Virus record (IMG/VR): IMGVR_UViG_3300022867_000025
Location: 1 to 42,196 of that record
Strand: one strand, 5' to 3'
Length of the DNA: 42,196 nt
Source of the DNA: a virus
Taxonomy: Duplodnaviria; Caudoviricetes
The notes under the pieces are model-generated. The model did no database searches and was not told where the DNA came from. It was given only the letters and a program-made list of their open reading frames with translations. The position numbers were made by a program, and so were the translations under genes. Of this stretch, positions 12,601 to 30,709 are shown piece by piece. The stretch's first letter is position 1, and every line of letters starts with the position of its first letter.

Positions 12601-15387
12601 CTATTCTATTAGTTTAGCGGAGTATCCCGTTGTATCGAACATTGGATTACCTTGCGAGCCCGGGCTACTTGCTCCCATACCGAAACCAATACTATTTAGG
12701 TACGCTTCTTGTACGGCTGGGCCGTGCTCATCTATATCTGCCTGAGTTACTTTGTTGAGCTCTATCCCGGCGGCCTGAGCTACTCTTGTCTTGTACGCAA
12801 TAGCGGGCTCCGTTGTAAACTCTATGACAATATCCCGGCGTTCTGCATCCAACCTAGCCCTTGCTGTTGCCTGTCGTTGTTCTTGGGCTGCCATTGCTGC
12901 ATCCCGCTTTAGTTTTTGCTCGTTAAGCCCGAGCTTTAGTTCTTGGCGACGGTTATCTTGTGCTTGCCCATACTCAGCACCAGCACGGCCCATTGATCCA
13001 AGTGCTCCAGCAGTTGTTACAGACTCAGAGTTAGAAAGCATCGCTATAAGGCGGTTTAAGTCTAACCCTTCTTTATTCTCTAAGGCAGCTATTTCCGCTT
13101 GTATACCACTTATTTCTTGCGCCTGTTGACGACCCGGTGCTCCGCCCTGTGCAGCATACCTACCAGCCGCGGCTTGGGCATCAGGGAAGGTTTCAGCATC
13201 AAACTTTTTCACTTCCCTATCCACTCCCCTATTCACTCCTAAACTTTCTAGGAACTTTTGAGCTTCCGCATCTGTCTGGGCTTGTATTCTATCCGCCTCA
13301 CTGGCTCTTGCACTTCCTACCCTATCTGCTACCTCTAAATATTCGGCTTGGGAAATAATCCCATTGTTCCGGGCCCTTTCAGCCGCGGCGGCGGTAACGA
13401 GAGCCTGCTTTACTTCTGGGTCAGTATCCCCTCTTGTAAAGGATTCACCAGCAAGTTCCCCAACAGCACTGTTAGGAAGCGCCCTAGGGTTCCCTTGCTT
13501 GGCAAAACCTTCTGCGTTTTTCTTTGCTACGTCTGCCCTCATCCTTGCAAAGAAACCAAGCTCCGCATCTTCAGGGGTTTGGGGCTCCTCACCCCTAGCG
13601 GCCTCTTCCATAGCAAGAGCCAAAGCATCAGGTATAGTTGGGGCGTTGGCCCGGGCTTCTTCTTTGTTGCCTTGGCTTTGTGAAGAAACTGCTGCTGATA
13701 ACATAGCCATTAAGTTATTTCGCCGTGCAATCGCTTCGTCCGTATCTGCTTCAACCAAGGAGCCGTCTTCCCCATTGTAACCTTTGATGTTAGCCGCTGG
13801 GTCTGCTTGGTTAACCATATCCTGAGACTCTTGCTGCATACGCAGAAACTTAACTATTTCCGCTACGCTTGGCTTACCGGCGGGCTGTGCTCCTCTAGCC
13901 GCTGGGTCTGCTTGGTTAACCATATTCTGAGACTCTTGCTGCATACGCAAGTAATCCACAGCAGAGTCTACCTTAGCCCGCTGGTTATCCTGTTTCTCTC
14001 CTACGCGCCGCAAACTTGCAATGCCTCCTTGCTCTTTATCATCCGCATACTGGTTGACTGCACCTTGAGCTTCGGGCGCAGCTTGGCTAAAGGCATCGCG
14101 CCTAGCTTGCTGTTTCCTACCCATATTCTGAAGGGCAGCTATACCCCCTGTAGGTTCTACAACCTCTTCCTCTGCAACAGGAGCCGTGGGCATAAGGGCA
14201 GCTATACCCGCTTCGTTCCGCTCTAACTTTTCTCGGCGCATACGCTCAGAATAGCCTTCTGGTTCTTGAGTAGTAATTTGTCTACCCCCCGCAAAATCCA
14301 GTGTGCGTTCAGGGCGCATATCGTCCATTATCTTACGGACGTAAGGTTCAGTTTGCCTACGCTGCGGTAGTACACTCATGTCCCGGCCTGAGGCCATAAA
14401 CTTATCAGCATTACCAAACCCAGCGTTATAGGCAATAAGAGCTGCCTCTACGTCTCCGTCGTATCTGTCAAGCATAGCCTGCAAATAGTCTCGTGCGAAT
14501 CTACGGCTTTCCACTGGGTCAAAAGAATTTTCTATAGGCCTAACCCGGAATCCCGGCTGCCTAGCAGTAGAGGGCAGTATTTGAAAAGCACCTTCTTCAC
14601 CCGCAGCTCCCACGGCGTTTGGGTCACCGCCGCTTTCCGCCATCATAAGAGAGTCTAGTAAAGCCTCTATGTCTAGATTGGAGTCGCCCCCAACCGACCC
14701 ACCAATAGCCATACCCGGACCCGCGAGGATACCTTTAGTGCTGTCGATGTACTGCATAACAGCCGCTTGCTCGTTGCCCATTTGCCCTTTTAATTCCTGT
14801 AGGTGCTGCTGGGCTTGCATCTTACTCTCGGGAGTCTGCGCTTTGTTAATGCTATCTGTTATAGCCATGTACTGGTTGGCAAACTGTTTTATTTGGGCAT
14901 CCCCCACAGGAGACTTAGGTACTGCTCCCATAGTAGGTATAGGGGATGCACTCACATTACCGCCTTGAGCATACCCAACGATACCGCCACTAGCCATCTG
15001 GTTCATGTTGGGTGCAGGCATACCGGGCATACCAGCAGCAGGGCGAAGCGCAGCTTCTTCAGCCATACGTTGCCCTTTAATATTCATACCCGGCTGTAGC
15101 GCCGATAGGGTGGATGCAATACCGCTCTCGACCTGCCCTTTAACAGTAGGGGGTGTAGGTGGCTGGTACTGCATTTGCTTTTCAGAAGCCGCGGCTTGTA
15201 GGAGCTGCAATGCCTGCTGCTCTTTCATAAGGGCACTTAGTGCTGGGGGTATGCCACCCCCCACAACTTCTTCCGCCATTGCTTGCTGTGGGGATTTGTT
15301 TTGTTGTGGTGTAGGCATGGGAAAACCCCCGCCAACGGATTGCGGAGGGGGGATAGAATTTAGTATACCTGACTGAGGCATTTGCAT
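12601..15387 (-). CDS. internal virion protein with lytic transglycosylase (SLT) domain
   Basis: MAESGG (catalytic E), GAFQILP, ALIAYNAG, TEPYV SLT motifs embedded in Q/A/G-rich sequence. Confidence 0.85.
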   Translation of the reverse strand: MQMPQSGILNSIPPPQSVGGGFPMPTPQQNKSPQQAMAEEVVGGGIPPALSALMKEQQALQLLQAAASEKQMQYQPPTPPTVKGQVESGIASTLSALQPGMNIKGQRMAEEAALRPAAGMPGMPAPNMNQMASGGIVGYAQGGNVSASPIPTMGAVPKSPVGDAQIKQFANQYMAITDSINKAQTPESKMQAQQHLQELKGQMGNEQAAVMQYIDSTKGILAGPGMAIGGSVGGDSNLDIEALLDSLMMAESGGDPNAVGAAGEEGAFQILPSTARQPGFRVRPIENSFDPVESRRFARDYLQAMLDRYDGDVEAALIAYNAGFGNADKFMASGRDMSVLPQRRQTEPYVRKIMDDMRPERTLDFAGGRQITTQEPEGYSERMRREKLERNEAGIAALMPTAPVAEEEVVEPTGGIAALQNMGRKQQARRDAFSQAAPEAQGAVNQYADDKEQGGIASLRRVGEKQDNQRAKVDSAVDYLRMQQESQNMVNQADPAARGAQPAGKPSVAEIVKFLRMQQESQDMVNQADPAANIKGYNGEDGSLVEADTDEAIARRNNLMAMLSAAVSSQSQGNKEEARANAPTIPDALALAMEEAARGEEPQTPEDAELGFFARMRADVAKKNAEGFAKQGNPRALPNSAVGELAGESFTRGDTDPEVKQALVTAAAAERARNNGIISQAEYLEVADRVGSARASEADRIQAQTDAEAQKFLESLGVNRGVDREVKKFDAETFPDAQAAAGRYAAQGGAPGRQQAQEISGIQAEIAALENKEGLDLNRLIAMLSNSESVTTAGALGSMGRAGAEYGQAQDNRRQELKLGLNEQKLKRDAAMAAQEQRQATARARLDAERRDIVIEFTTEPAIAYKTRVAQAAGIELNKVTQADIDEHGPAVQEAYLNSIGFGMGASSPGSQGNPMFDTTGYSAKLIE
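13791..13949. repeat. ~54-nt direct repeat x2 (105-nt spacing) inside the SLT protein
   Basis: tagccgctgggtctgcttggttaaccatat(c/t)ctgagactcttgctgcatacgca at 13791 and 13896; encodes LRMQQESQ(N/D)MVNQADPAA. Confidence 0.9.
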
Positions 15388-15398
15388 ATTAGTTGTCC

Positions 15399-16571
15399 TT
15401 AAGTTTTAGGGAGGATGCCGACGCTCTGCATGAGTCCCAAAATACCACCTGCCCCACTAGTAAACTGGGATAAGCCACTAGGCTCAGCGTACTCATAAGA
15501 CTGCGTTTCAATAGGCAAGCCCTGCAATAAAGACTGCATGTACTGTACTTTCTTGTAAGGGTCGTCCCGCTCTAATTCGAACTGAGCCATATCCGCGGCT
15601 ACTTGCTCCCCTTGCATACCTCTTTGTACAGCGCCTGCGCCTTGCTGAGCGTTTAGCAGACTGAAGCCATAGTCGTTGTTCTGCTTCTGCGCGGCCATAT
15701 CACGTACCGCTTGGGTGTTAAACTGACCTGCTTCAAAGTCTCTATCCGCCATCAGACGAGATTGCTCGGTGTTAAACTGACCTGCCCCAAAAGCTCTATC
15801 CGCCATCAGACGAGATTGCTCGGTGTTAAACTGACCCGCCCCAAAAGCTCTATCCGCTCGCTGACGCTCTTGTTCAGTGTTAAACTGTTGTTGTGCTTGG
15901 GTAAAGGCATCTCGATACCCACTACCCGTAATACCCGCCATCCTATCTAGCATACCCCTGTCTAACTCCGCAGAAGCAACAGCTTGCCGACCCCCACCAA
16001 AAGCACCGGCTTTACCATATTGACTCCGCATAGCCTGTTGGGCTATCTCGTTCTGCCGGTTTGCCGCGTCATACTGCGGCTGCAAAGCTCCTTGTAGGTA
16101 AGGATTCATGTATTGTTGAAGCACACTGCTAGACATGGGTATGTTGCTTTGGCCGTCTACCGCTTGTTGAGCTGTAGGGGCATCGTACCCCGGGCCTGTA
16201 AAGGATGTAGGGGTGTAAGCATTTGCCGTTTGAGTAGGGGACAAAGACGAAGCGTAAGATGTAGGGGTGTAAGCATTTGCCGTTTGAGTAGGGGACAAAG
16301 ACGAAGCGTAAGATGCAGGGGTATAAACGTCCCCAGTATACGTGCCGCCAGTGACTGCGGTCCCCATCCCAGTAGGAGTACTTAATGCCCCTAGTCCTTG
16401 GAAGGCATTGGTTTGTAAAGTAGACGGCCCCGCGGTTAAAGCGCCGCCATATCCTTGGTAGGGCTCAGAGGCAAGAGCGCGTCCACGCCCCAGCATATCA
16501 GTTACGTATGGCCCAGCCCAGTTACTTAGGGTGGATTCTTGTGCTAATGGGTCGCCTACTTGTGTAACCAT
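15399..16571 (-). CDS. internal virion / DNA-transfer (pilot-like) protein
   Basis: Q/G/A-rich, YMNPY...AGAFGGGR motif typical of podovirus ejection proteins; lies between other internal virion genes. Confidence 0.65.
   Translation of the reverse strand: MVTQVGDPLAQESTLSNWAGPYVTDMLGRGRALASEPYQGYGGALTAGPSTLQTNAFQGLGALSTPTGMGTAVTGGTYTGDVYTPASYASSLSPTQTANAYTPTSYASSLSPTQTANAYTPTSFTGPGYDAPTAQQAVDGQSNIPMSSSVLQQYMNPYLQGALQPQYDAANRQNEIAQQAMRSQYGKAGAFGGGRQAVASAELDRGMLDRMAGITGSGYRDAFTQAQQQFNTEQERQRADRAFGAGQFNTEQSRLMADRAFGAGQFNTEQSRLMADRDFEAGQFNTQAVRDMAAQKQNNDYGFSLLNAQQGAGAVQRGMQGEQVAADMAQFELERDDPYKKVQYMQSLLQGLPIETQSYEYAEPSGLSQFTSGAGGILGLMQSVGILPKT
15715..15887. repeat. 54-nt tandem repeat (~3.3 units)
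   Basis: gtgttaaactg recurs at 15715, 15769, 15823 and 15877; encodes QFNTEQSRLMADRAFGAG. Confidence 0.9.
16204..16322. repeat. 54-nt perfect tandem repeat x2 plus partial
   Basis: gatgtaggggtgtaagcatttgccgtttgagtaggggacaaagacgaagcgtaa; encodes YASSLSPTQTANAYTPTS. Confidence 0.92.
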
Positions 16572-16581
16572 TGTATTTCTC

Positions 16582-19500
16582 CTACCCTAAGTATTTGCGG
16601 GGGTCAATTTCACGCCCCTGATTCGGATTGCCAGTACGGTCTTTACGTAACCGGTCCATCATACTGTATAAATTCTCCGCACCGGCATCAGAGTTACCGT
16701 TGCCTAGGTGACTGACCACATCCGCGGGTATTACAAACTCGCCGTCACTGAGTCGAGCTGGCTCTTTGTTGTCTATTGTAGCAGGAACATCATCCGCCAT
16801 GCCATCTGTAGAGCCCCCTAAGTAATAGCCTTGCCCCCCTATAATACCGCCTTGCGCGAAACCCTTCTGTTTCATAAAGGCTTTATACTCATCTATTAGC
16901 TGTTGGCCTGTTTTGGCGGGGGTTACCGTTTGTACCCCGTCAACAGTGGTTATGACGTTACCATACGCATCTTCTAGATTGCCATCTTGGTTTGTTGTAA
17001 ACGAGTTATTGGGGCGTAAGCTGGGAACAAAAGAAGTTCTTGCTTCTGCGTACCCTTGGTGGTCAAACTCCTCTATAGGGTCTGCCCCGCCTTCAACGAA
17101 CTCATTTGGGTTATTATTAAAATATCCTACTAACTCGTTAACCTCGTTCTCGGATATGCCAAAGTAGCTTGCGGCTTCCCCTACTAGATTTGGGTTTGCA
17201 TTTATTAGCCTAGAGGCACTTGCAACTTCTGCGTTGGTATAATCCCCATCTGCTTCTATACCTGAAAAGGCGCTACCCTCTATAAGGTCTGCCGCTTCTC
17301 CAGCGGATATTAAGCCCTGTAGGTATTGCTGGTATAGGGCCTGCGAAACCTTATAAGCCTCGGATTGGCTTGTTATAGCGTCGGAGGCTATTTGGTTTTG
17401 GGTCTTTACCCTAGCTGCCTCTGCTGCCTGTTCGTTTGCCACCCTAGTATTTTCTGCTGCCTGTTCGTTTGCCACCCTAGTATTTTCTGCTGCCTGTGCT
17501 GCTTGTAGTTGAGCTTGCGCTGTTGCCTCGGCCTGTGCATCTGCTGTTGCTTGCGCTGCTATTGCAGCTTGGTTAGTGTTGTACTGGTTAGTTAGCCCGG
17601 TTGTTATATCCGCTACTTCAGCATCGTAGGCATCTATACGGCCTTGAGTAGCAGCCCTACGCGCTCGGTTGTCTTCTGCTCCTAGGAAGTACTGTTGCTG
17701 GGAGGCTACCCCCTCGTCGTTGGTTACCGTCTCCATCTGCGGGTTGTATAGCCCAGTAGCCGGTGTGTTAAAGTAGTTCCTTCCCGCGCTTCCAGCAGGG
17801 CGCTCCCCTACGAAGGCATCTGCTTTAAGGGATCGGTCTAGATTGTAGGAGGGTACACCCCCTTGATAGCCTTGATTACCTCCGCTATTACCCCCGCCTC
17901 CGCCGCTGAGTCCCGCAATACCTCCCGCTAGGGCCCCTATAATAGACCCTATTTTTTGTCCACCGGTTAACCCTACGCTACCACCGGGAGCAAAAGTTTG
18001 CATGGGTAGGGAGGCTAAGCCTCTGCTGTGTCTGTTATTGCGACTGTTGTTGTTCACTTCGCCACCTCTATTGTAAGTGCGTAATAATCCATCTTTTTCA
18101 TCCTCTGTAAGCTCTGGCGCAAATATAGAGTCCCCACCTACGTCAAATAAGTAATCTATATCTACTAAGTCCCCGGGAGTTACCCTAACCTTGCCCGGTG
18201 AACTTTGGGGCTGCCCAAAACCGCCGCCTCCGCCACCACCGCCACCTTCGCCACGAGGTGGGGCTTCTCCCCGAGGGGGAGGCGACATAAAGTCTTCTAC
18301 AGAATAAGTTTGAGCGCGTATGTCGGTGGGTATATCAAAATCATAACCCGTTGATTTAGGGGCAGAAGGGCCATCTGCAACAACTGTGTCACCAACAACT
18401 GTGTCACCAACAACTGTGTCACCAACAACTGTGTCATCAACAACTGTGTCACCAACAACTATGTCATCAACAACTGTGTCATCAACAACTGTGTCATCAA
18501 CAACTGTGTCATCAACAACTGTGTCACCAACAACTGTGTCACCAACAACTGTGTCACCAACAACTGAGTCATCAACAACTGTGTCATCAACAACTGTGTC
18601 ATCTATTGAGTCTGGGGTTAAGTTTGGTCCAACAACACCGGGGGCCACATCCCCATCACTGGTACTTGCAGTGGCGTTTAACAACTGATCTATTGGGTCT
18701 GGGGTTAAGTTTGGTCCAACAACACCGGGGGCCACATTCCCACTAATTATATCCTCGGCGCTATCTGTTTCAGTACCAGTAATGTCTACCCCGAATACAG
18801 TATCAGCATCATTCAGGGTTGTAGCGGATACTACCGAGCTCCCTACCTCTTGCAGCCCTTCTATAGTTTTTTCAATGTTTTCAGTGCTAACCCCCAGCTC
18901 TTCGGCAGCAGCTCCGGTAAGTATTTCTCGTACTGTTGAGGCATCAATCACCTCTTCCGCAGCAATGCGCCCTGAAAGTACACCTGTTACTTTATTGAGT
19001 ATGGCATCCAGCGCCGCGTTTCCCGTTGTCACACCAGTCTGTGTTCCAGCGCCGGTGGTACCCGTATTTATTACTCGACTTCCCCCAGTCTGGCCCCAAA
19101 CTACAGTACCCGATTGAATCCCACCAATAATTTTTGTGGGGTTAGGGAGGCGTAAAATCCTAAATACCTCATCTATTGCGTCCCCTACTTTGCTTGCTAC
19201 CGCGTTAACCCCACTGGATACAGTGTTTTGCACAGAGTTAAGTATGTTGGTTGTGGGCACTGTGCCGGGGGTTGCTACACTGGTAGAGCCAAGAGTGCCG
19301 GGAGCAAAACCTAAGGTATCAAATAAATTGTTGTAGTACTCCTCAGTTTCCTCGGGGGTCATGGGGGTGTTGGCAGCTTGGTTTGCTTCAGCAGCAAACC
19401 TGTTTTGGGTTTGCTGGATTGCACCCGCTAGGTCAAACGAGTCTTGGAAGTTACTGTTGTTATAGTTGTTCTGTATATCTGCCAGCGTTTCTTCTAGCGT

Positions 19501-20004
19501 GCGGGTGTCTGCTGCATTGTTAATAGCTGTCCGGGATGCTATCTGTTCCGAGGTTGGGCGAATATCCGCGCCCTGTTCCAAAATAGAATTAAGGTAGTCG
19601 TTTTGTTGGGCTGCACTAACCGCGCCTACCACGGGGTCTGGAAATAAAGATAGCGCACTACCAAGGTCAACTTCGGTGCCCCCAATAGAATCACTGTATA
19701 CCCCCGTATTTGAGCTTGGTCCTCCGGGAAGTCGGTCGGGTGGGAGAAAGTCTGAGTCGCCTTCTTGGTTAGCTAAATCCGAGGTAGCTTGCAGGGCTGC
19801 CAAAAAAGCATCTTGGTCTACCTGTGCTTGGGTTTTGTATGACCCATCAGGCTGTCGAACCATTGTGCCCGGGCTTAACCCACTGCTACCCCCTAGTGAG
19901 GGGTCAAAAGAAGTGTTAAATGCACCCAGGTCTAATGAGCCAAGGCCGCCACTTTGGCCCGTGACGGTTATTGATGTGGGCATTCTATTTGTTGTAGTAC
20001 CCAT
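16582..20004 (-). CDS. large acidic low-complexity virion-associated protein with conserved C-terminal 'D.VPA...LSDGEFVIPADVV' domain
   Basis: 1140 aa with multiple internal repeats. The C-terminal ~90 aa is a globular-looking block that follows FAQGG. Confidence 0.7.
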   Translation of the reverse strand: MGTTTNRMPTSITVTGQSGGLGSLDLGAFNTSFDPSLGGSSGLSPGTMVRQPDGSYKTQAQVDQDAFLAALQATSDLANQEGDSDFLPPDRLPGGPSSNTGVYSDSIGGTEVDLGSALSLFPDPVVGAVSAAQQNDYLNSILEQGADIRPTSEQIASRTAINNAADTRTLEETLADIQNNYNNSNFQDSFDLAGAIQQTQNRFAAEANQAANTPMTPEETEEYYNNLFDTLGFAPGTLGSTSVATPGTVPTTNILNSVQNTVSSGVNAVASKVGDAIDEVFRILRLPNPTKIIGGIQSGTVVWGQTGGSRVINTGTTGAGTQTGVTTGNAALDAILNKVTGVLSGRIAAEEVIDASTVREILTGAAAEELGVSTENIEKTIEGLQEVGSSVVSATTLNDADTVFGVDITGTETDSAEDIISGNVAPGVVGPNLTPDPIDQLLNATASTSDGDVAPGVVGPNLTPDSIDDTVVDDTVVDDSVVGDTVVGDTVVGDTVVDDTVVDDTVVDDTVVDDIVVGDTVVDDTVVGDTVVGDTVVGDTVVADGPSAPKSTGYDFDIPTDIRAQTYSVEDFMSPPPRGEAPPRGEGGGGGGGGGFGQPQSSPGKVRVTPGDLVDIDYLFDVGGDSIFAPELTEDEKDGLLRTYNRGGEVNNNSRNNRHSRGLASLPMQTFAPGGSVGLTGGQKIGSIIGALAGGIAGLSGGGGGNSGGNQGYQGGVPSYNLDRSLKADAFVGERPAGSAGRNYFNTPATGLYNPQMETVTNDEGVASQQQYFLGAEDNRARRAATQGRIDAYDAEVADITTGLTNQYNTNQAAIAAQATADAQAEATAQAQLQAAQAAENTRVANEQAAENTRVANEQAAEAARVKTQNQIASDAITSQSEAYKVSQALYQQYLQGLISAGEAADLIEGSAFSGIEADGDYTNAEVASASRLINANPNLVGEAASYFGISENEVNELVGYFNNNPNEFVEGGADPIEEFDHQGYAEARTSFVPSLRPNNSFTTNQDGNLEDAYGNVITTVDGVQTVTPAKTGQQLIDEYKAFMKQKGFAQGGIIGGQGYYLGGSTDGMADDVPATIDNKEPARLSDGEFVIPADVVSHLGNGNSDAGAENLYSMMDRLRKDRTGNPNQGREIDPRKYLG
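17421..17496. repeat. 33-nt tandem repeat x2+
   Basis: ctgctgcctgttcgtttgccaccctagtatttt; encodes AENTRVANEQA. Confidence 0.88.
18378..18602. repeat. 15-nt coding minisatellite x15
   Basis: caacaactgtgtca(c/t) units; encodes (D/G)DTVV pentapeptides. Confidence 0.95.
18601..18737. repeat. 50-nt direct repeat x2
   Basis: atctattg(a/g)gtctggggttaagtttggtccaacaacaccgggggccacat at 18601 and 18688; encodes VAPGVVGPNLTPD. Confidence 0.9.
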
Positions 20005-20429: not shown

Positions 20430-20431
20430 AC

Positions 20432-22279
20432 TTACCCCCTCCGGCCGTCAGGCCGCATGTCTAAACGTGGTAGGCCAAGCCGCCAAGCCACACCCAGTTC
20501 AGTAGACTCTAGCTTAAAGGCCATCTGCCTACCCCGTACTCGGATAAAAACCTGCCCCGTAAATTCTTCTATAGGCGCGGTTGCAGTGCGCGTCACGGTT
20601 ACGTTGTCTACCCCACCTTGAGACGTAGGAGTATTGTAGCCCGAGCCTGAGTTCTCCATAGGCAGTAGCGTCATTACACACGCAGGGTTTTCCGCAGTTG
20701 AGTCTATGAACGTCACATCGGGCAGTACGCGCCTAACAAACATAAACTTATCCCCGTCATCTAAGTCAAACTCAGAGGAAAGTATGGTGGCTGTAATGGG
20801 TTCTATAGTGGCAGTTTCTTGAGAATCATACCCTACTTCATGCTGCACTAAGTTGTTGTAGTACGTAGCGGCGGTAGGCTGCTCTCTTAAATCTGCATCC
20901 ATCCAAGCTGTGCGTGCCATCGTGCCGTAGTACCATATTTCTTGCACGTAATTGTATATCACATACCGGTCTATCGTAGTTGACCCCGCAGAGCAATAGA
21001 ACCACCAAACCTCGTCGAACCGCTCGTTAGTACCCGCTACCACTTGTGAGTACTGCGCTTTGTTAAAGTCATTAAATATGTACCCGCGTAGGCTACAAGG
21101 GAGGGTATTAACCGTACCCTCGTAGTAGTAGAACTTGTCAGAACCCATCCAGTAGGCTGCGTTACCCGAATAAACTGCCGCGTTGGGGCTGGCTATGGTT
21201 ATGTTATCTCCCAACAATTGGGCACCAAACACTTCGGGGGCTCCTAGGTACTGTAGGCCGTAAAGTGCAGTATCAGTCCAGATCAAAATCTCCTGACGCG
21301 CTTGCAAGGCCTTAACAATCTCGGTACCACTAGAGAATCGCAAGCTACCTGCTTGGTTAGTAGCTTCGGGAGTCCAATTAGCCACATCTTCTTGAGCAGA
21401 CCAACGGATTAGCATGGGGTCTAAAACTGTGGAACCTAGGGGGGTAGTACCAAAGCATAGTGCGAAGCGAAAAATGTCGGACACCAACACAGAATTGACG
21501 ATAGTGGGCACATCAGAGGCCCCTGCTAAAGACGACACGTACACCCCCCGTGTAGATACCGAGTTAGTTGCATCCCAGTACATTAGCTGCCCCCCACGAT
21601 GGGCAAATAATAAATCTTCACCAAAGTTAGCCTGACTCCACAAACGTATGGGTGAGAACGTAGTGCCTCCAACGCCCCAACCTCCTAAGCCCCAAGTACC
21701 TGCACTAAAGCCTGTATAGGGTACTGCTATTTCGGAGCCTGTGTTTATTTGGTATGCCGCAGTAACGGTGTCTCCGCCCGTTGCTCCCGAGGAAGCTGTG
21801 GTCTCGGCTGTTATGCTATATGCGTCTTCGGTTATAAAAGAAATTGCGTACTCATTGTTTAGAGTAAGCCCACCAACCGCAGAAGCCCCATTAAAAGTAA
21901 CGTAATCACCTTCAATTGCCCCGTGAGATGTATCTGTAACCCCCACAACCGCGGAGCCCAACGTAGTAGTAAAGGGGTTAGTTAGGGTAGCAGTCGAGCG
22001 GATAGGCGTAATATCATAATAGGCTCCGCCGCGTTCTATGTAGTACTTTAAGTTGGTGCCCACGCTGACAAGGTTCTGGCTGCCAAGGGTAACCCAGTTG
22101 TGCATAGAGCGGCATACGCCAAGAAAGGTAGAGCTAGAAAGCCTTACCCACCCCCCTATCTTTTGGGGAAACCCCCGTCTAAAACGCACCTTATCAGTCT
22201 CATACCAACTACCTTCAGCAGCATAGCGGGTGCTTTCCCGGTCTACACCGGGTTTTATCTGTAGTTTTTGTAGTGGCAT
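20432..22279 (-). CDS. tail tubular / nozzle (packaged-DNA stabilisation-like) protein
   Basis: 615 aa, beta-rich. MPLQKLQIKPG...KVRFR.G.PQKIGGW N-terminus, IRWS, ends DMRPDGRR; sits before the internal virion genes. Confidence 0.7.
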   Translation of the reverse strand: MPLQKLQIKPGVDRESTRYAAEGSWYETDKVRFRRGFPQKIGGWVRLSSSTFLGVCRSMHNWVTLGSQNLVSVGTNLKYYIERGGAYYDITPIRSTATLTNPFTTTLGSAVVGVTDTSHGAIEGDYVTFNGASAVGGLTLNNEYAISFITEDAYSITAETTASSGATGGDTVTAAYQINTGSEIAVPYTGFSAGTWGLGGWGVGGTTFSPIRLWSQANFGEDLLFAHRGGQLMYWDATNSVSTRGVYVSSLAGASDVPTIVNSVLVSDIFRFALCFGTTPLGSTVLDPMLIRWSAQEDVANWTPEATNQAGSLRFSSGTEIVKALQARQEILIWTDTALYGLQYLGAPEVFGAQLLGDNITIASPNAAVYSGNAAYWMGSDKFYYYEGTVNTLPCSLRGYIFNDFNKAQYSQVVAGTNERFDEVWWFYCSAGSTTIDRYVIYNYVQEIWYYGTMARTAWMDADLREQPTAATYYNNLVQHEVGYDSQETATIEPITATILSSEFDLDDGDKFMFVRRVLPDVTFIDSTAENPACVMTLLPMENSGSGYNTPTSQGGVDNVTVTRTATAPIEEFTGQVFIRVRGRQMAFKLESTELGVAWRLGLPRLDMRPDGRRG

Positions 22280-23235: not shown

Positions 23236-23481
23236 CTATACTTTACCTGTTATTTTCAAGTAAGTACCCGCCATCAAAGCGCCAAGGAACAGATATGTCA
23301 GTGTCTGCACAATCGCCTTCCCTGCTGTACGTTTAGCCATGCGCCATGCGTCAAGGACCGACCGAAGCTCCCTCAAGTCTGTGTTGGCATCTACATCTGA
23401 CAGGCCAATATCATGCAGAGCCTTTTTAGCACCTGCCGCCGCCGCCTTCTCTATTAACTGCTCTATCTGTGCTTCGGTCAT
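23236..23481 (-). CDS. holin-like / DUF6127-like membrane protein
   Basis: AA..GAK.AL..IGL.D..A..D..ELR..LDAWR followed by one C-terminal TM helix; in the lysis cluster. Confidence 0.6.
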   Translation of the reverse strand: MTEAQIEQLIEKAAAAGAKKALHDIGLSDVDANTDLRELRSVLDAWRMAKRTAGKAIVQTLTYLFLGALMAGTYLKITGKV

Positions 23482-23496
23482 GGTGCTGCTCCATTA

Positions 23497-23526
23497 CTAC
23501 GGGCTAGTGGGCCAGTCGTCTGACAA
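23497..23526 (-). pseudogene. relic 3' end of a tail-fibre assembly chaperone gene (LSDDWPTSP*)
   Basis: TTG TCA GAC GAC TGG CCC ACT AGC CCG TAG is preceded in-frame by TAG. 'WPxxP*' is the typical terminus of phage tail assembly chaperones. Confidence 0.5.
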
Positions 23527-23590
23527 CTACGCCAAATTTACTCTCTGTAAGGTGGGTCAATAATTTCACCAAGTAATCAGTTAAATAGCA

Positions 23591-24133: not shown

Positions 24134-24422
24134 CTTCTTTCCTCTTTTTAGTGGTTCTAATGACTGCCGCTTCGTGTTCTGACTGGTCAGTTATTTGAGC
24201 TTCTAGGGCTTTGTAGGTGTTTTCCACTGCCACCATCTGTGCGCGTGTAGACTCAAGCCTTTCTTGAATATCCTTAGTGTTGGCCCCTGTGGGCGCGTTA
24301 TCAATCAGATGCTCAAAGTTCTTAGCGTCAAAATCGTAGTGGAAGTATTCCACCTCTCTTGCGTACATGGCACTGGCTATCGTGTCTGCTTTGTAGGTGC
24401 TTGGTAGTTGTTTATGCTTCAT
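24111..24422 (-). CDS. hypothetical protein (tail accessory module)
   Basis: 103 aa, RBS AAGGA, overlaps the next gene. Confidence 0.7.
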   Translation of the reverse strand: MKHKQLPSTYKADTIASAMYAREVEYFHYDFDAKNFEHLIDNAPTGANTKDIQERLESTRAQMVAVENTYKALEAQITDQSEHEAAVIRTTKKRKEDEIRADK

Positions 24423-24432
24423 ATTTTATTCC

Positions 24433-25485
24433 TTATAGTGCGGTGAATGCTACACCTTGGCAAGTTCCGGTGGGTAAAGTGCTAGGGTTAGCGAATTTAA
24501 CCCCGAATCCAGAAGCACTCCAAGGGTAAGCTGCGAGATAAGGGCTGGACTGGTGGCCTACTAGTATTGCAGCTCCAGCGGGGTCGAAGGCAATGCTCGC
24601 TCCAATTCCTGCTGGCAATGTACTAGGATTAGAAAACTTAGTCCCAAACCCTGAAGCACTCCAAGGATAAGCTGAAACATAAGGGTAAGCTGCGTGAGCT
24701 ATACCTATCTCAGTTCCTGCTGGGCTGAAGGCAACGCCGTTGCCATCGCCTGTAGGTAAAGTGCTGGGGTTAGAAAACTTAGTCCCAAATCCCGATGCAC
24801 TCCAAGGGTAAGCCGAGACAAACGGGGTTAAGTTGTGACCTATAGCTATCTCAGTTCCAGTGGGGCTAAAGGCAACGCCGTCGCCAGTAAATGTTGGTAA
24901 AGTGCCAGGGTTAGCGAATTTAGCCCCGAATCCAGAAGCACTCCAAGAATAAGCTGAAACGTAAGGGCTTGTGGTGTGGCCTATAGCTATCTCAGTTCCT
25001 GCTGGGCTGAATGCTACGCCGTTGCCAGTTCCGGTGGGTAATGTACTAGGATTAGAAAACTTAGTCCCAAACCCTGACGCGCTCCAAGGGTAAGCTGCGA
25101 GATAAGGGCTTGAGTTGTGAGCTATACCTATCCCAGTTCCGGCGGGGCTGAAGGCAACGGCGTTGCCATTGCCTGTAGGTAAAGTGCCGGGATTAGAAAA
25201 CTTAGTCCCAAACCCTGACTCGCTCCAAGGGTAAGCTGAAACATAAGGGCTTGAGGTGTGGCCTACTGCTATCTCAGTTCCAGCGGGGCTGAAGGCAACA
25301 TCGTTGCCAGTTGCGGTGGGTAATGTACTAGGATTAGAAAACTTAGTCCCAAACCCTGACGCGCTCCAAGGGTAAGCTGAAACGTTAGGGCTTGTAAAGT
25401 GAGCGGTTGCTACGAAGAATGGTCCACTCGGAACAGTGACAAACCCCCGCTGGTTCTGAAAAACTGCTAGTAGTGCACCACTCAC
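24433..25485 (-). CDS. 7-bladed beta-propeller protein (WD40-like), probable receptor-binding/tail accessory
   Basis: Seven 47-aa repeats (AYPWSASGFGTKFSNPSTLPT.TG..VAFSPAGTEIA.GH). Likely start is GTG at 25485, overlapping the fibre stop (GTGA), rather than 25512. Confidence 0.8.
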   Translation of the reverse strand: MSGALLAVFQNQRGFVTVPSGPFFVATAHFTSPNVSAYPWSASGFGTKFSNPSTLPTATGNDVAFSPAGTEIAVGHTSSPYVSAYPWSESGFGTKFSNPGTLPTGNGNAVAFSPAGTGIGIAHNSSPYLAAYPWSASGFGTKFSNPSTLPTGTGNGVAFSPAGTEIAIGHTTSPYVSAYSWSASGFGAKFANPGTLPTFTGDGVAFSPTGTEIAIGHNLTPFVSAYPWSASGFGTKFSNPSTLPTGDGNGVAFSPAGTEIGIAHAAYPYVSAYPWSASGFGTKFSNPSTLPAGIGASIAFDPAGAAILVGHQSSPYLAAYPWSASGFGVKFANPSTLPTGTCQGVAFTAL

Positions 25486-26825
25486 GTTAAGGCGCTCCCG
25501 CTGATGAGCCACAGTGCGGACTCAATCTTTAGCGCAGTCGCAGAACCATATTGCGCCAAGCTCCGTGTTCCAGTAGTTCCGTCTTTCGCCAACCGCATTA
25601 CGTCTGTTGTTATTGCAATAGACACTACCTGACTTGTCATGTTGACAAAAGTAAGCGCGGTTCCGATGGGGTAAGCCACGGAGGCGTTTGCGGGGATGGT
25701 GTATGTTCGGGTACTGGCATCACTAGATGGGTGGAAGATATGCCTTCCGTTGTCTGTAAGCACTAATGTGTAGTTGGCAGACTGTCTGTTTTGGGGGATA
25801 TTACGGAAGCCAACCGCGTCTGTGCCATCAACCGTGCATCCTGACAACGTGCCAGAAGCGGGTGTACCAAGAACCGGTGTCACAAACGTAGGTGAGGTAT
25901 TAGTCGCGTAGGTAGAACCTGTTCCGGTCTTAGTTACTGTGTCCGTAGCAAGTCCAGCGGTTAAAGAGGCCGCTGTTCCTGAAACGTTAGTCATTACCCC
26001 AGAAGCGGGGGTTCCTAAGACTGGAGTAACAAATGTCGGGCTAGTAGCGAATACCAAAGCACCTGTACCCGTCTCGTCCGTTACTGCCGTTATAAGGTTT
26101 GCACTAGACGGAGTACCAAGGAAGCCCGCAACACCCGCCCCAAGGGACGTAATGCCAGTACCACCGTTAGCGACAGGTAGTGTGCCTGTGACATTGGTAG
26201 TCAGGTTAGCAAAGGTAGTAGCGGTAGTACCCGTACCCCCGTTAGCGGTAGGCAGGGTGCCTGTAACCTGTGAGGTAAGGTCCACATCCGACAAAGACCC
26301 GCCAAGCGTGAAAGTGCCGGAGCTGGTAACTGGGCCTCCTGTAAGCGTAATTCCATTAACCGTTCCAGTTACTGCTACAGAGGTAACACTGCCGCCTATT
26401 TCAGTAGGGTTAGCATTAAGTACCGCAGCGCCTGCGCCAGCACCGTCGGTAACCACCATCAGCTTACTGCCACTAGGGACATCTACTGTAGCGCCTGAAC
26501 CTTGCTTGATCGTGAGGGTCTGGCTGCCCGTTGTAGCGTTCTCAATCATCCACACCTTGGATATGGTGTTGGGGCCGAGTGTAATCGTGCGTGTAGCGGT
26601 TAGCGATACACCTGAGGTAAACTTTAGGTAGAAACCGCGAGTAGCGTCAGCCGTAGCATCAGGCATTGTGAAGGTTTCATCAGCGTCAGCCGCCATATCC
26701 TTTGTGCCGTAGCTAAAACCGTCGGTAACAAGCTCAAGGTTGGTGTTAGTGCTAGTGCCCCAAGTACCGTCCTCATCACCTGTGGTGATTTCTTTAAGTC
26801 GTAAGTTGTTATTAAAAGTAGGCAT
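25482..26825 (-). CDS. tail fibre protein
   Basis: N-terminal LRL.EITTG...GTWG..TNTNL virion-anchor block, VTGTLP.ANGGTG and TFVTPVLGTPASG repeats, C-terminal YTLVLTD...IPANASVAYPIGT...W.ISG. Confidence 0.85.
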   Translation of the reverse strand: MPTFNNNLRLKEITTGDEDGTWGTSTNTNLELVTDGFSYGTKDMAADADETFTMPDATADATRGFYLKFTSGVSLTATRTITLGPNTISKVWMIENATTGSQTLTIKQGSGATVDVPSGSKLMVVTDGAGAGAAVLNANPTEIGGSVTSVAVTGTVNGITLTGGPVTSSGTFTLGGSLSDVDLTSQVTGTLPTANGGTGTTATTFANLTTNVTGTLPVANGGTGITSLGAGVAGFLGTPSSANLITAVTDETGTGALVFATSPTFVTPVLGTPASGVMTNVSGTAASLTAGLATDTVTKTGTGSTYATNTSPTFVTPVLGTPASGTLSGCTVDGTDAVGFRNIPQNRQSANYTLVLTDNGRHIFHPSSDASTRTYTIPANASVAYPIGTALTFVNMTSQVVSIAITTDVMRLAKDGTTGTRSLAQYGSATALKIESALWLISGSALT

Positions 26826-26841
26826 TTGGTTTCTCCGGTAC

Positions 26842-27057
26842 TTATGTTAGGGTACTGCCAGAGGCAGAGGGAACGCTTGTTGCGTAAATCTTTGTACTTT
26901 GCCGCAAAGTAAGGGTTCCCCCACAGTCCCCACAAGTATCGGCATTTAGCTCTTCCTTGTCAAGATCATAGCCGCACGCCCCGCAAACTACTTGAACCTC
27001 ATGTTTGGGGTCGATTGCGCCATTTGCTATTTTAGTTGCTTCGTTAAATATAATCAT
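26842..27057 (-). CDS. small zinc-ribbon protein
   Basis: CGACG...CGDCG; coupled by ATGA. Confidence 0.65.
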   Translation of the reverse strand: MIIFNEATKIANGAIDPKHEVQVVCGACGYDLDKEELNADTCGDCGGTLTLRQSTKIYATSVPSASGSTLT

Positions 27058-27737
27058 GCTGCTACATCAATCCAATTAGGGTTGCCACCCGGAACAATCT
27101 CGCTCCAGACTAGTACATTTCCTACTCCGCCAGTGGCACTTACCCCTGTTATATAAACATTAGCCAGTGCTGTTTGTGTTGTTTCACCTAGTGCTGTAGT
27201 GCCCTGTACCCCAGTTACGTCTACATTCTGCTGTAGTAGGACTGTTACATTGCCGAGGGAAGAGTTTGTTTGTACGCCAACCTCGGTAACAGTGGCATCC
27301 CCTGTTACCCCGATTATACCCAGTGCTGAGTTGGTTTGGAGTCCTACAAGCACAACTCCAGTAGTTTCTACAACTCGGGCTTCGCCTGTTTGCCCTAGGG
27401 CTTGGACCCCAGTTGGGTTGACCGTAGCGGAAGCCTGTATCGTGGCTGTACCCACATATCCGTCAGAGGCGTTACCCAGTACACTAACTGCACCCGCTTC
27501 GCCCGTAACCGCTACGTTACCTAGAGCAAAAGTAGACTGAACCCCCGTAAGGACAACAACTGCACCCGCCGCTACCTGAACTGAGCCTACTACGCCTGTA
27601 GTAGCAAGACCTAAGCCTCCGCCCCACGCACCTTGGCCCCACGAACCACGCCCCCATACGCCTAAGCGAACAGTTGCATCAACGCCTTCTCCCCAAGAGC
27701 CTGAACTCCAAGTATTTCGACCCCAGCCGTCAGTCAT
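27054..27737 (-). CDS. Gly/Val/Thr-rich structural protein
   Basis: GWGR..W..G.WG repeats then V..TGV.....G.V beta repeats. Confidence 0.65.
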   Translation of the reverse strand: MTDGWGRNTWSSGSWGEGVDATVRLGVWGRGSWGQGAWGGGLGLATTGVVGSVQVAAGAVVVLTGVQSTFALGNVAVTGEAGAVSVLGNASDGYVGTATIQASATVNPTGVQALGQTGEARVVETTGVVLVGLQTNSALGIIGVTGDATVTEVGVQTNSSLGNVTVLLQQNVDVTGVQGTTALGETTQTALANVYITGVSATGGVGNVLVWSEIVPGGNPNWIDVAA

Positions 27738-27740
27738 CTA

Positions 27741-28175
27741 TTAAGCTAGACGGATGATTGCATTACTAGAATCTGCCGCTGGGAAGACAATGGTAAAGTC
27801 ACCCGCAGTTGATGTTTTATCTGCACCAAAATCAAGTACTGCTACAGCAGGGTTAGTGCCGCCGTTTGCTAAGTAGATCAAAGCGCCACGAGCAGTAATA
27901 GTCGCATCCGCCCAAGTAGTATCCGCGAAATCCAAAAACGCGGTTGTGCCTGTAGACGCTGGATTAGTGGATATAGTTAGCGTATTACCCGCAGCAACGT
28001 AGTTAGTACCTGTGACTTCGTTAGTTGTTGCATACGCAGTAGTCGTTGCCCCTAGGGTTGCGCTAGATGTATACAGTGCAATCTTAAACGTCTGTGCTGT
28101 ACCTGCGCTAAAGTCAAAGTCGCCACCAAGAAGCTCTACTTTGAAGGACGTTGCCATTGCTTGTGATATCGCCAT
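27741..28175 (-). CDS. conserved virion structural protein
   Basis: MAISQAM.TSFK.ELL.G...FKIALYT...VLDFG.DK.ST.GDFTI.FP, a common phage structural family. Confidence 0.75.
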   Translation of the reverse strand: MAISQAMATSFKVELLGGDFDFSAGTAQTFKIALYTSSATLGATTTAYATTNEVTGTNYVAAGNTLTISTNPASTGTTAFLDFADTTWADATITARGALIYLANGGTNPAVAVLDFGADKTSTAGDFTIVFPAADSSNAIIRLA

Positions 28176-28214
28176 TTTTCTTTCCTCTAAGGCATAACGC
28201 CCAATTTAATTTGG

Positions 28215-28844
28215 TTATGCTACTGGGATTCTTACTTGCCCAGAGCGGTACATATCTTCACGCATCTTACCATCCCCAAGGTTGCGGAGCAGTAATAACG
28301 CTTGGGTAAACATTTTCTCGTAAAGCGCAAGCATATCAGGCTCACCCTTCATAAAACGAATTGCTTGTACTAAGGCCCCGTTAAGCAGAGCAGAGTCAAA
28401 CTCATCCCCTAGCCATGTGGTCCCCGCGGTTACAATAGTCTCAGGGTAGTACCCGTAGTGTAGCTCCACAGCATAAGCAGCATCTGGAGTCGGGCCTAGT
28501 ATAAAAGAGGTATCACTAAACACGGCATAGTGCTTGGGTTTGCCAGTGCTAGTAGGGTTTGGATACGCCTGCCGCACGAAGTTTACATCTTTGTTTAACA
28601 GGTACTCATAGTTACCCGTAGCGTCAATAACGGCAAGTGAGAACGTGTAGAGAAAATCTGTAGGGTAAATAAGGTAGCTATTACCCACCCCAAGCGCCCC
28701 TGTCTGGTTACGGCGCAAAGCGGGTATCTGAACAGTATTATATACGAACTGCTCCGCCTGCTTAACAAACATGGCAAGCTGGTCTTCTGTAAAAGTCTGC
28801 TCACAGATATCCTGAATATTTACTTTAAGCTCAGTATAATTCAC
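28215..28844 (-). CDS. head-tail adaptor / tail tubular protein A-like
   Basis: MNY.EL...IQD, G.PK.YA, ILGPTPD..Y..ELHY, TWL, LL.G.L. Confidence 0.65.
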   Translation of the reverse strand: MNYTELKVNIQDICEQTFTEDQLAMFVKQAEQFVYNTVQIPALRRNQTGALGVGNSYLIYPTDFLYTFSLAVIDATGNYEYLLNKDVNFVRQAYPNPTSTGKPKHYAVFSDTSFILGPTPDAAYAVELHYGYYPETIVTAGTTWLGDEFDSALLNGALVQAIRFMKGEPDMLALYEKMFTQALLLLRNLGDGKMREDMYRSGQVRIPVA

Positions 28845-28854
28845 CAGCTACTCC

Positions 28855-29037
28855 CTAACCCATTGGCCCACGAGCCATAGTACCCTTAGTAGCGGCACCT
28901 GTACCGCGTATCTTTACACCGGCAGTCTTTAAATTGGCCGGGGGTTGGTTGCAGGTATCCACTTTATAGACAGTAGGCACATCAGGGAAGTCAATTATCT
29001 TAGGTGTTTTTACTGTTGATCTAGATTTGTTCTTCAT
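28855..29037 (-). CDS. small basic protein
   Basis: Ends KIRGTGAATKGTMARGPMG; in the late operon. Confidence 0.65.
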   Translation of the reverse strand: MKNKSRSTVKTPKIIDFPDVPTVYKVDTCNQPPANLKTAGVKIRGTGAATKGTMARGPMG

Positions 29038-29046
29038 TTTAGCATC

Positions 29047-29409
29047 CTATTCTGTAGTTACTGTAACATTACCCACAGTACCTTTGGCTTCTAAGTTATC
29101 TGGGGTTACCCCAAAAGGGTCGTTTAAACCCACCGGATTCCAACCCCACTGTATGTTCACACTACTAAACTCACCTGAAGGTACTAGGCTTCTGTCAGGT
29201 CTTGGATTACGTATCGCTTGCGGGTCATCTACTGGAAACCTACCTAGCATTAGCTGAGGTTGATCTGGGCTCCAACATTCAGGGCACGCTTTTGTCTGCG
29301 TTACGGTTCCTGCTACTACTAAGTTCTTTAACTGTTTTAGCTTGTACTCAAACCCGCACACATCACACATTGCAAGGGCTATCTTATTTGAGGCAAACCT
29401 AGTGGTCAT
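29047..29409 (-). CDS. zinc-binding conserved phage protein
   Basis: CDVCGF...CPECW..DQPQL...DPQA.R.PRPD. Confidence 0.75.
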   Translation of the reverse strand: MTTRFASNKIALAMCDVCGFEYKLKQLKNLVVAGTVTQTKACPECWSPDQPQLMLGRFPVDDPQAIRNPRPDRSLVPSGEFSSVNIQWGWNPVGLNDPFGVTPDNLEAKGTVGNVTVTTE

Positions 29410-29411
29410 GC

Positions 29412-30110
29412 TTAATACCCACTTATTCTAGGGACTAGCCGTAGAGTTGCTTTTTCTCTGTCTTCCCCAGCCGCTAGTTCCCACTGACGCTCATACTCAG
29501 CCTGTAGCATGGGTATTCTAACCATAAGATCAGGGTCTTTAGCCGCTATGTAATATGCCAACCCCGCAACTAAACAGGGTAGGAACCGAAAGCTAACATC
29601 AGCGTCATTAATACCTTCCCCAGCATCTTGGATACGGCGCATACGCCAATAAACCAACTGGTAGTAAGGCTCAGCAACTGTACCCCTATCTGGAACGGGC
29701 CACAACCTAACAACGGGAGCAATGCTCCGGTCCACGTTCACCTGTATAGGGCGACCCTGTGTTAGCTTGTTAGGGATACTAGCGTAAGTAGGCATACTTA
29801 CTCTGGCTATAGTTAAGTCTGATTGCAGGTTTTCATTCCCCTGCTCTGTACGTATGACTTGCTCTAGTAGGTCTATGGTTTCAGTAGGCAGAGAATACGT
29901 AGATTGGCCCTGAACTAGAGGTAGTACTCCTTCCTCTATGGTCCACATGTTTATGCCGCGGTTCTGCCACTCAATGGTCAGCAGATTCATGGAACGCCTA
30001 GCAGTTCTAAAGTCGTAACCAGACCGCATTTCACGACCGGCACGTTCCCATGCTTCTTCGGCAATCTCCGTGAAGTCCATGTTAAACGAGGAAGTACCTG
30101 AAGTAGCCAT
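29412..30110 (-). CDS. head completion / adaptor-like protein
   Basis: MATSGT..F..D..EI.EEA.ERAG...GYD..TARRS.NLL..EW.NRG.N.WT, LWPVPD. Confidence 0.7.
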   Translation of the reverse strand: MATSGTSSFNMDFTEIAEEAWERAGREMRSGYDFRTARRSMNLLTIEWQNRGINMWTIEEGVLPLVQGQSTYSLPTETIDLLEQVIRTEQGNENLQSDLTIARVSMPTYASIPNKLTQGRPIQVNVDRSIAPVVRLWPVPDRGTVAEPYYQLVYWRMRRIQDAGEGINDADVSFRFLPCLVAGLAYYIAAKDPDLMVRIPMLQAEYERQWELAAGEDREKATLRLVPRISGY

Positions 30111-30388
30111 TATTTTTCCTTCCTTCTAAGCGGTGCTACACGTTTGGGTTTTCCTGCCGGTTGTCCTAGGCGCTTCTTTTGCGCTACACGGGACTTCTTT
30201 TCTGCCGCAGTCATTTCACCAGATGTCTTAGGTGTTTTACTGGAAACCTTTTTAGTTGGCCTACAGTACGGGGTTCCCCGTTTATCGCCGTCCTTGCGCC
30301 CACAAGCCTTGCCTGTTTTTACGTCTTTCCAGTCTTCCGCAAACCAACGCTTTAGGGCTTTACCCTTCTCGGTTTTACGAACGGCCAC
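30110..30388 (-). CDS. basic conserved protein (LKRWF.E.W...CGR...PYCRP, DUF5872-like)
   Basis: Likely start is GTG at 30388 (MAVRKTEKG...) rather than 30430, because the upstream part belongs to the overlapping 30375-30545 gene. Confidence 0.7.
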   Translation of the reverse strand: MAVRKTEKGKALKRWFAEDWKDVKTGKACGRKDGDKRGTPYCRPTKKVSSKTPKTSGEMTAAEKKSRVAQKKRLGQPAGKPKRVAPLRRKEK

Positions 30389-30545
30389 TAGCTTTCTTCT
30401 TTCGGCACTTTGCGATAGCACCCGAGGCATACGCGGAAGGGAAGACTTTATATGATGCCTTCACCTTGCGGTAACATTCATCTTTGACCGTACCGCCCTC
30501 CTTAAGCGCAATGGGCTTCATTTTGCCCATGCCTCGGCACTGCAT
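30375..30545 (-). CDS. 56-aa basic protein (PSAYASG motif, DUF5872-like); not in ORF track
   Basis: MQCRGMGKMKPIALKEGGTVKDECYRKVKASYKVFPSAYASGAIAKCRKKKASGRS; ATG overlaps the upstream TGA. Confidence 0.7.
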   Translation of the reverse strand: MQCRGMGKMKPIALKEGGTVKDECYRKVKASYKVFPSAYASGAIAKCRKKKASGRS

Positions 30546-30709
30546 CACCGCATTGTACCCTTAGTACGGCCCTTAGTAACGCAACCATCGCCGCGACCTA
30601 CTGAACCGCCTGCCATGTACCCTTTCATTTTAGGCTTTGCTTTACCCATAGCTTGCTTATCGTCCATCTTACCGCCCATCATGCCGCCCGCCATATACTC
30701 TTTTTTCAT
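30545..30709 (-). CDS. 54-aa Met/Lys/Gly-rich protein; not in ORF track
   Basis: MKKEYMAGGMMGGKMDDKQAMGKAKPKMKGYMAGGSVGRGDGCVTKGRTKGTMR; fills the gap exactly, TGATG coupling. Confidence 0.7.
   Translation of the reverse strand: MKKEYMAGGMMGGKMDDKQAMGKAKPKMKGYMAGGSVGRGDGCVTKGRTKGTMR

Follow-up and report, generated by a model that had tools for sequence, protein, structure and literature searches.

A conserved Gly-Gly motif on the likely ejection and small basic proteins of an HTVC023P/DSL-LC04-like podophage, a candidate docking tag for virion cargo

Short peptide signals on internal virion proteins are known from several viruses. In phage T4, the capsid targeting sequence (CTS) of the internal proteins IPI-III is a short conserved tag that directs these diverse small proteins to the prohead core (passages of PMC3012670), while the adenovirus protease adenain recognizes the consensus (M/I/L)XGG, with one spacer residue, and cuts before the following X (passages of PMC4246237). 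Related questions are raised by ejected or tail-borne proteins: the portal-bound segment 425-552 resolved in crAss001 gp45 interdigitates with the wing loops of the portal (passages of PMC10172136), segment 1022-1066 of JBD30 gp46 (PDB 8RK3) has been proposed as a holding 'hook' (passages of PMC11445458), and both the cut site and the enzyme of lambda gpH are reported as unknown in passages of a 2025 paper (PMC12617516). Here we analyse a motif of the form Phi-[AK]-x-G-G-x-[VI] (Phi being hydrophobic) in the IMG/VR record IMGVR_UViG_3300022867_000025, a linear 42-kb virus record (42,196 nucleotides, hereinafter the window) from an HTVC023P/DSL-LC04-like podophage. The motif is conserved, biased towards cargo, placed at the points where modules are swapped and the first element of a module that is common with tape-measure proteins. 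We propose, with about even confidence, that it is a conserved peptide tag on likely ejection and small basic proteins which acts as an uncut docking handle in head assembly. It is a real and widespread cargo tag and apparently an undescribed one, as we found no description of it in the searchable passages of the open-access literature, term searches of PMC9599517 and PMC10149686 included.

Each of the above systems shares something with this locus. As with the T4 CTS, unrelated small basic proteins, presumably internal ones, gain one and the same tag; and as in the substrates of adenain and of pS273R of African swine fever virus (ASFV), a Gly-Gly core follows a hydrophobic residue in internal virion proteins, small basic ones included. 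The cargo protein C1 of crAss001, gp45, carries about nine motifs of like form, on which the passages of its paper (PMC10172136) do not remark. Its segment 425-552 begins A-F-G-G-W-L, so that the Gly-Gly is attached to the domain, and clear motifs stand at the same place in homologues. Finally, the tape-measure module of JBD30 gp46 and Douge gp16 (PDB 8ZDO) starts with the same motif, often with a second one flanking it, but lies in the siphophage tail lumen, whereas here its counterpart forms the end of a podophage ejection-block protein and many proteins have come to carry the motif.

The sequence-only reading had cited nine instances and one variant of the pattern in four late proteins, all of which are present in ORFs (open reading frames) of the minus strand. 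Two of these proteins belong to the ejection block, by which we mean four large genes (1140, 390, 928 and 1922 amino acids, aa) at the usual place of ejection proteins, and two are small and basic:

12601..15387, minus strand: 928-aa ejection-block protein with an SLT transglycosylase domain at residues 242-329 (Pfam SLT, E 2e-18; PHROG internal virion protein with endolysin domain)
14953..14997, minus strand: tandem of MASGGIV (residue 131) and YAQGGNV (residue 139), 8 residues apart, its position kept in homologues
14692..14712, minus strand: MAIGGSV (residue 226), directly before the SLT domain
13753..13779, minus strand: long-loop variant YNGEDGSLV (residue 537), of the type Phi-x-G-[PE]-D-G-S-x-V
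16582..20004, minus strand: 1140-aa ejection-block protein after the nozzle gene, with a low-complexity N-terminal part and a conserved C-terminal module
17974..18075, minus strand: YNRGGEV (residue 644) and FAPGGSV (residue 671) of the 1140-aa protein
16585..16872, minus strand: C-terminal module (residues 1045-1140), beginning with FAQGGII (16840-16860; residue 1049)
30545..30709, minus strand: 54-aa basic protein with YMAGGMM (residue 5; 30677-30697) and YMAGGSV (residue 31; 30599-30619); Lys plus Arg 13, Asp plus Glu 4
30375..30548, minus strand: 56/57-aa basic protein with LKEGGTV (30486-30506) before a PSAYASG domain; PHROG 727

Against an expectation from 1000 local shuffles, the ejection block of the window holds 6 motifs versus 0.89 expected, a count reached by none of the shuffles, and its six small basic proteins hold 3 versus 0.18 (reached once in 1000). 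The six replication proteins have none (0.26 expected), and the 28 remaining late proteins have 2 versus 1.0, both in TerL. Those TerL matches, LQPGGAI and FRKGGFI, had been overlooked in the sequence-only reading, as had two further points, namely that the motif is lacking from both the 1922-aa and the 390-aa ejection protein and that the domain at 16582-16860 is homologous to a tape-measure module. Since the motif was defined on these same proteins, the window p-values are inflated, and a fairer test was therefore run in relatives, namely 160 IMG/VR loci and the records of six annotated phages, with our own ORF calls dereplicated at 70%.

Among these relatives, ejection proteins show 80 motifs versus 19.6 expected and small basic proteins 57 versus 2.9, as compared to 5 versus 3.1 in the head core and 0 versus 4.1 in neck and nozzle proteins. 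The exact pattern [FYM]-x-x-G-G-x-[VI] is enriched 9.5-fold in ejection proteins (68 vs 7.2) and 47-fold in small basic proteins (44 vs 0.9), stands at 0.2-fold in the Gly-richer tail and structural controls (1 vs 4.8), and falls to near 1-fold at most shifted spacings, these fold values not being independent counts since the tested loci are mutually related. At least five families of small proteins and three proteins of the ejection block carry the same tag. Tagging is not universal among the cargo, however: fewer than two strict motifs occur in 14 of the 44 loci in which 1200 aa or more of the ejection block is present.

In the family of the SLT protein, the motif is present in all 46 homologues (113 occurrences vs 7.2 expected), for the most part in tandems of 8 residues by which modules are delimited. 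The SLT domain itself occurs in only 5 of the 46, and in all five its start lies 10-30 residues beyond the last N-terminal motif; an additional module separates motifs in some members, and one has lost a module. Consistent with this, 44% of 620 internal alignment ends in the SLT family, which are not mutually independent, lie no more than 20 aa from a motif, versus 16% at random positions; in the 1140-aa family the figures are 15% of 3051, likewise not independent, versus 8%. The placement at domain boundaries noticed by the sequence-only reading is supported by both the SLT starts and the alignment ends. The P-D-G sequence is a classic hairpin turn, and a Phi-x-G-P-D-G-S-x-V variant replaces the second tandem unit in 6 of 39 distinct homologue tandems with retention of Phi and Val; seven more of these tandems have other changes in the Gly pair. 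When the whole SLT protein was searched in IMG/VR, only near-identical copies were found. One SLT-family homologue, P0260, has Pfam hits of the Hint/intein type (PF07591, PF05203 and PF14890) in place of SLT, which puts a self-cleaving module among the swapped cargo.

The small basic proteins show the motif as a modular element. It is present in 14 of 14 unique homologues of the 56/57-aa protein, while a search with the 54-aa protein returned one near-identical relative only. Three further members of the cluster are as follows:

30110..30430, minus strand: 106-aa basic protein (DUF5872), untagged in the window, with an N-terminal tag in 4 of 17 unique homologues
31378..31653, minus strand: 91-aa basic protein, untagged in the window, with an N-terminal tag in 3 of 11 unique homologues
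28855..29037, minus strand: 60-aa basic protein, without the motif in the window copy, with it in 8 of 25 unique homologues

In two unrelated families (the 3 of 11 and 4 of 17 above), near-identical cores occur with or without a tag of the form MRxYYKxGGxV. The tag codons have diverged synonymously and the DNA upstream is unshared, which places the constraint on the peptide; moreover, no DNA repeats were found at the motif sites, and an origin by DNA duplication was rejected. Unrelated small proteins thus gain the motif as an N-terminal cassette. Both this and the ejection-protein results show the motif to be real, conserved and biased towards cargo at module boundaries, so that neither a frequency explicable by Gly-rich composition nor a want of conservation in homologues, on which the sequence-only reading had staked its proposal, was found.

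The C-terminal part of the 1140-aa protein has 2844 relatives, and the module in which it ends belongs to a family of 14,682 clusters at 50% identity, joined to N-terminal partners of very different lengths. Within it the glycines of the motif are at least 90% conserved, three acidic positions (D23, D27 and E45) are invariant, and the consensus reads as the motif followed by GPG(T/S)..SD.IPA.LS.GE[FY]V. The module matches the tape-measure PHROG 3547 (E 7e-4, with 10 of 16 alignment members at E<=0.1), and its homologue in DSL-LC04 matches PDB 8ZDO (E 3e-4) and 8RK3 (E 4e-3) as well as 546 phage records, mostly tape-measure genes among the 50 matches listed. By these sequence matches the module is homologous to a siphophage tape-measure-protein module, where the motif again comes first and a further copy often follows the module, as in lambda gpH (733 and 778); the FATGG...YATGG region of the latter matches the module weakly (E 0.49). 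No long-tail tape-measure context was recognized in the window, which has a nozzle and two SU10-type adaptors, and where Pfam and PHROGs revealed no tail tube. In many relatives, two genes take the place of the 1140-aa gene, the first ending in the motif and a short conserved helix (DELLRI-type) and the second in the module; by synteny, 17974..18075 may possibly be the junction at which two such genes were fused, and BLAST gave no link of the 1140-aa N-terminal part to the separate genes of relatives. That N-terminal part also contains, at 18333-18648, about 20 tandem copies of a 15-nucleotide unit encoding V-V-[DG]-D-T, the copy number of which differs in the related locus L003.

Among 12 genomes compared, the six with the C-terminal module hold 40 motifs versus 7.7 expected and the six without it 4 versus 5.8. 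The cultured relatives CRP-901 and CRP-902 have the same head module and neither the motif nor the C-terminal module, making them natural negative controls; in CRP-901, four small basic proteins pass our filter, and only motif and module are missing. The wider family can thus do without the motif system. In DSL-LC04 (L166:10344-12821, annotated as PcfJ-like) and HTVC027P (L270:15806-18484), large genes that lie between TerL and portal bear two to three motifs, which suggests extra tagged cargo outside the ejection block.

We posit the following model for an uncut docking handle. The motif would fold as a short beta-hairpin in which the aromatic or Met side chain and that of Val or Ile pair across the Gly turn, so that both, on one face of the hairpin, could plug a pocket. 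It may have derived from the start of the C-terminal module. In the 1140-aa protein, this module would serve as the anchor at the portal, much as does the crAss001 gp45 segment that begins with a like motif. Motif copies that stand free of the module would attach to the portal vertex, to the C-terminal module or to the inner shell, tandem copies might add avidity, and untagged cargo such as the giant protein could ride on tagged partners. We infer the fold, the receptor and the loading step in this model, the structural elements of which are as follows:

36478..38952, minus strand: portal (PHROG 1216), a candidate receptor by analogy with crAss001
34739..35770, minus strand: probable scaffold, judged by position and composition; motif in 0 of 84 homologues
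32767..33675, minus strand: major capsid protein (PHROG and other matches); motif in 1 of 86 homologues
20432..22279, minus strand: tail nozzle (PDB 9NWI_Y; nozzle 8ZKK), a Gly-rich negative control with the motif in 0 of 86

Modelled with AlphaFold from alignments of 16 and 87 sequences, the module has a mean predicted local distance difference test (pLDDT) score of 54-56, with the motif region below 50, and the hairpin is hence proposed from the sequence; fold searches with these models (Foldseek, VIA) gave no clear match. A complex prediction of two portal fragments (residues 60-515) with the module scored 0.00 with an uncertain fold of the partner, and speaks neither for nor against binding. 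The module and gp45 resemble each other by eye in their G-G-S/T...G-E-[FV]-V features, and the ESM Atlas feature score of 0.84 between them is a lead only.

Several observations weigh against a docking handle. For gp45, hhalign assigned homology to the module 0.3% and no match to PF25725, the family of the portal-bound crAss cargo protein 1 domain, was obtained. No receptor for the motif was identified, and the virion location of the four large and the small basic proteins is one that we infer from gene position and PHROG labels. Two of the four ejection-block proteins lack the motif:

15399..16571, minus strand: 390-aa ejection-block protein, no motif in the window; N-terminal tag in few relatives
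6820..12588, minus strand: 1922-aa giant (DarB-like) protein, no motif; PHROG 10089, Pfam DUF6782; HExxH at residue 919

For the former, the pattern occurs anywhere in 6 of 24 unique homologues and as an N-terminal tag in about four; for the latter, it is absent from all 16 copies, 15 of which are partial. Kinship among the genomes confounds the co-occurrence of motif and module, and in RW the module is accompanied by few motifs other than its own. The T4 CTS is strictly N-terminal and is removed after loading by gp21, which also cuts the capsid protein and the core; here, in contrast, the motif is also internal, tandem and C-terminal, starting among the first 15 residues in only 14 of 73 cases for small proteins and 3 of 81 for ejection proteins, it is found in just 1 of 86 capsid and none of 84 scaffold homologues, and no prohead protease was recognized by Pfam or PHROGs in the window, as the sequence-only reading had stated. 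The system works like the T4 CTS but lacks two of its defining features. The remaining points concern cleavage. Single-Gly variants show no enrichment overall (0.78-fold and 0.88-fold), implying that both glycines normally matter, as they would at a protease site; module swaps at the motifs suit a polyprotein equally well; a model of gp45 that starts exactly at the Ala of the motif would also be given by a cut before that Ala; and lambda gpH is cut near its FATGG motif, a cut at which (733) would release a fragment of 12.2-12.7 kDa, as compared to the published value of about 14 kDa (passages of PMC12617516).

Accordingly, one must consider that a protease of phage or host, or a self-cleaving one, cuts at or beside the motif, most plausibly before the Ala or Lys to leave the new N-terminus A-x-G-G-x-V. 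The ejection ORFs would then be polyproteins, the modules of which are freed from their anchors before ejection, and the N-terminal tags would, like that of T4, be taken off once the proteins are loaded; both docking and cutting may apply. The insertion, deletion and swapping of modules at motifs, the position of motifs directly before a conserved terminal helix or an anchor module and the need for both glycines at the population level would all follow, and in gp45 the resolved segments 214-245 and 425-552 each lie between motifs, residue 425 being the motif's Ala. The four gp45 peptides named in passages of its paper's text (PMC10172136) span no motif. We nevertheless consider such a cut, the main rival to an uncut docking handle, rather unlikely. 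No protease gene tracks the motif, and the capsid and scaffold proteins, the usual substrates of prohead proteases, are without it in the counts given above. In crAss homologues, the residue before the motif's Ala varies widely (N, K, H, R, F, Y), and the published estimate for gpH* (about 78 kDa, or residues 1 to about 710) would end 20-27 residues before the motif. In the crAss001 study, gp45 is treated as a continuous chain, and cleavage goes unmentioned in passages of the main text (PMC10172136).

Two sets of protease candidates were considered. The zincin-like HExxH motif (DUF6782) of the giant protein, at 9820-9834, is also seen in the giant protein of Yong1 and not in 10 other genomes; it is thus present in large late proteins of only 2 of 12 genomes, and absent from those of DSL-LC04 and HTVC027P, which have the most motifs, and fails as a general processing enzyme. 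The 148-, 195-, 65- and 174-aa head proteins have neither the family nor the residue pattern of a known protease, though a new type of protease may be among them.

Docking and cutting can be combined in one code, Phi|A-x-G-G-x-V (the bar marking the cut), common to podophage ejection, crassvirus cargo and tape-measure proteins, whereby the motif docks and is then cut before the Ala. The protease might possibly be the adjacent acidic module with its invariant D23, D27 and E45, and modules would be released for ordered ejection. We regard this combination as unlikely.

Yet another interpretation is that the motif acts at or after ejection as a flexible hinge or self-association element with no role in loading, ordering unfolded chains as they pass the tail, build a trans-envelope channel or bind DNA. 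Motif and module are shared with siphophage tape-measure proteins, which are ejected but not loaded into heads, and the homologous segment of JBD30 has been proposed to hold the protein after its release (passages of PMC11445458). However, the gain of N-terminal tags by tiny basic proteins would be left unexplained and a plain hinge needs no fixed spacing of Phi and Val, making this role, in our assessment, quite improbable.

The alternatives offered by the sequence-only reading were a maturation cleavage signal and a docking signal, and it is the latter that is better supported. Its specific proposal of a cysteine protease related to adenain, pS273R or Ulp1 that cuts after the Gly-Gly is very improbable, and the system appears not to be of the adenain type. 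An invariant Gly-Gly with an upstream hydrophobic residue would suit such an enzyme, and ejection proteins show a mild excess of the adenain spacing (216 vs 151, 1.43-fold). Nonetheless, that spacing is at 1.19-fold in small proteins, and the spacing that is enriched places two residues, not one, between Phi and the Gly pair, with conservation that reaches the Val or Ile two places after it. Adenain-like cysteine proteases cut poorly before Pro, which directly follows the Gly pair in 12 of 344 motifs. The Gly-Gly at 427-428 of gp45 lies inside the resolved portal-bound segment, the capsid and scaffold are again without the motif, and no clan-CE protease was found by Pfam or PHROGs in the window and a near-identical 50.5-kb record (81% complete by estimate, with several ORFs without a family).

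Lastly, although the motif was defined after the fact and yields probably unrelated matches in TerL, the 195-aa protein and tail fibres, the probability that it just reflects a Gly-rich composition or the duplication of DNA between neighbouring genes is next to negligible, given its enrichment over local shuffles, its depletion in Gly-richer controls, its conservation in every SLT-protein homologue, the synonymous divergence and the lack of DNA repeats at its sites. The matches themselves are of doubtful membership: that of the 195-aa protein is LVTGGTV (18 of 87), and the TerL match is

39018..39038, minus strand: FRKGGFI at the TerL C-terminus, with a pattern match in 45 of 52 TerL homologues and the form F-R-[QK]-G-G-F-I fixed

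and may be a separate conserved element. In the TerL C-terminus (38952-39038), F-R-[QK]-G-G-F-I precedes an acidic linker, after which comes a basic tail with two aromatic residues at its end (often GGYY or GGFY); this tail, kept across the family, is likely a portal-docking tail.

The surrounding genes form a podophage late operon on the minus strand, comprising terminase, portal, GroES, probable scaffold, capsid protein, small basic proteins, two SU10-type adaptors, fibres, lysis genes, nozzle and the ejection block:

35781-36305: GroES co-chaperonin, between portal and scaffold, kept in family members both with and without the motif

The capsid protein shares 63-70% identity with its counterparts in MinM2/Yong1, DSL-LC04, 023Pt, HTVC023P and HTVC027P and 56% with those in CRP-901/902. 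Phages of this type are among the most abundant in water, with about 10,000 IMG/VR stretches estimated from the capsid gene alone. The near-identical 50.5-kb record adds 8.3 kb to the window, and the motif was not found in the 13 extra ORFs of that addition. Searches for solved structures of the capsid, portal and 390-aa protein yielded none, and a term search of passages of the family papers (PMC9599517, PMC10149686) revealed no virion proteomics of the group. Elsewhere in the window, a 359-aa protein (24433-25512; PHROG 19311, no Pfam family) consists of about seven repeats of 44 residues (YVSAYPWS.SGFG.KFSNP.TLP) and is probably a beta-propeller receptor-binding domain, and an endonuclease VII/HNH-like gene amid the small basic gene cluster (30714-31352) is probably a homing endonuclease.

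For short-tailed phages that lack a prohead protease, it is a largely open question how injected proteins are chosen and positioned. A cargo-marking tag of seven residues, if confirmed, would make ejected and internal proteins predictable from sequence; like the T4 tag, it might also load proteins of choice into heads. If docking is followed by a cut before the Ala, the cut in lambda gpH would be placed at residue 733/734. Taken together with its counterparts in tape-measure proteins and crAss001 gp45, the motif suggests a single ancestral handle that ejected proteins share whatever the type of tail.

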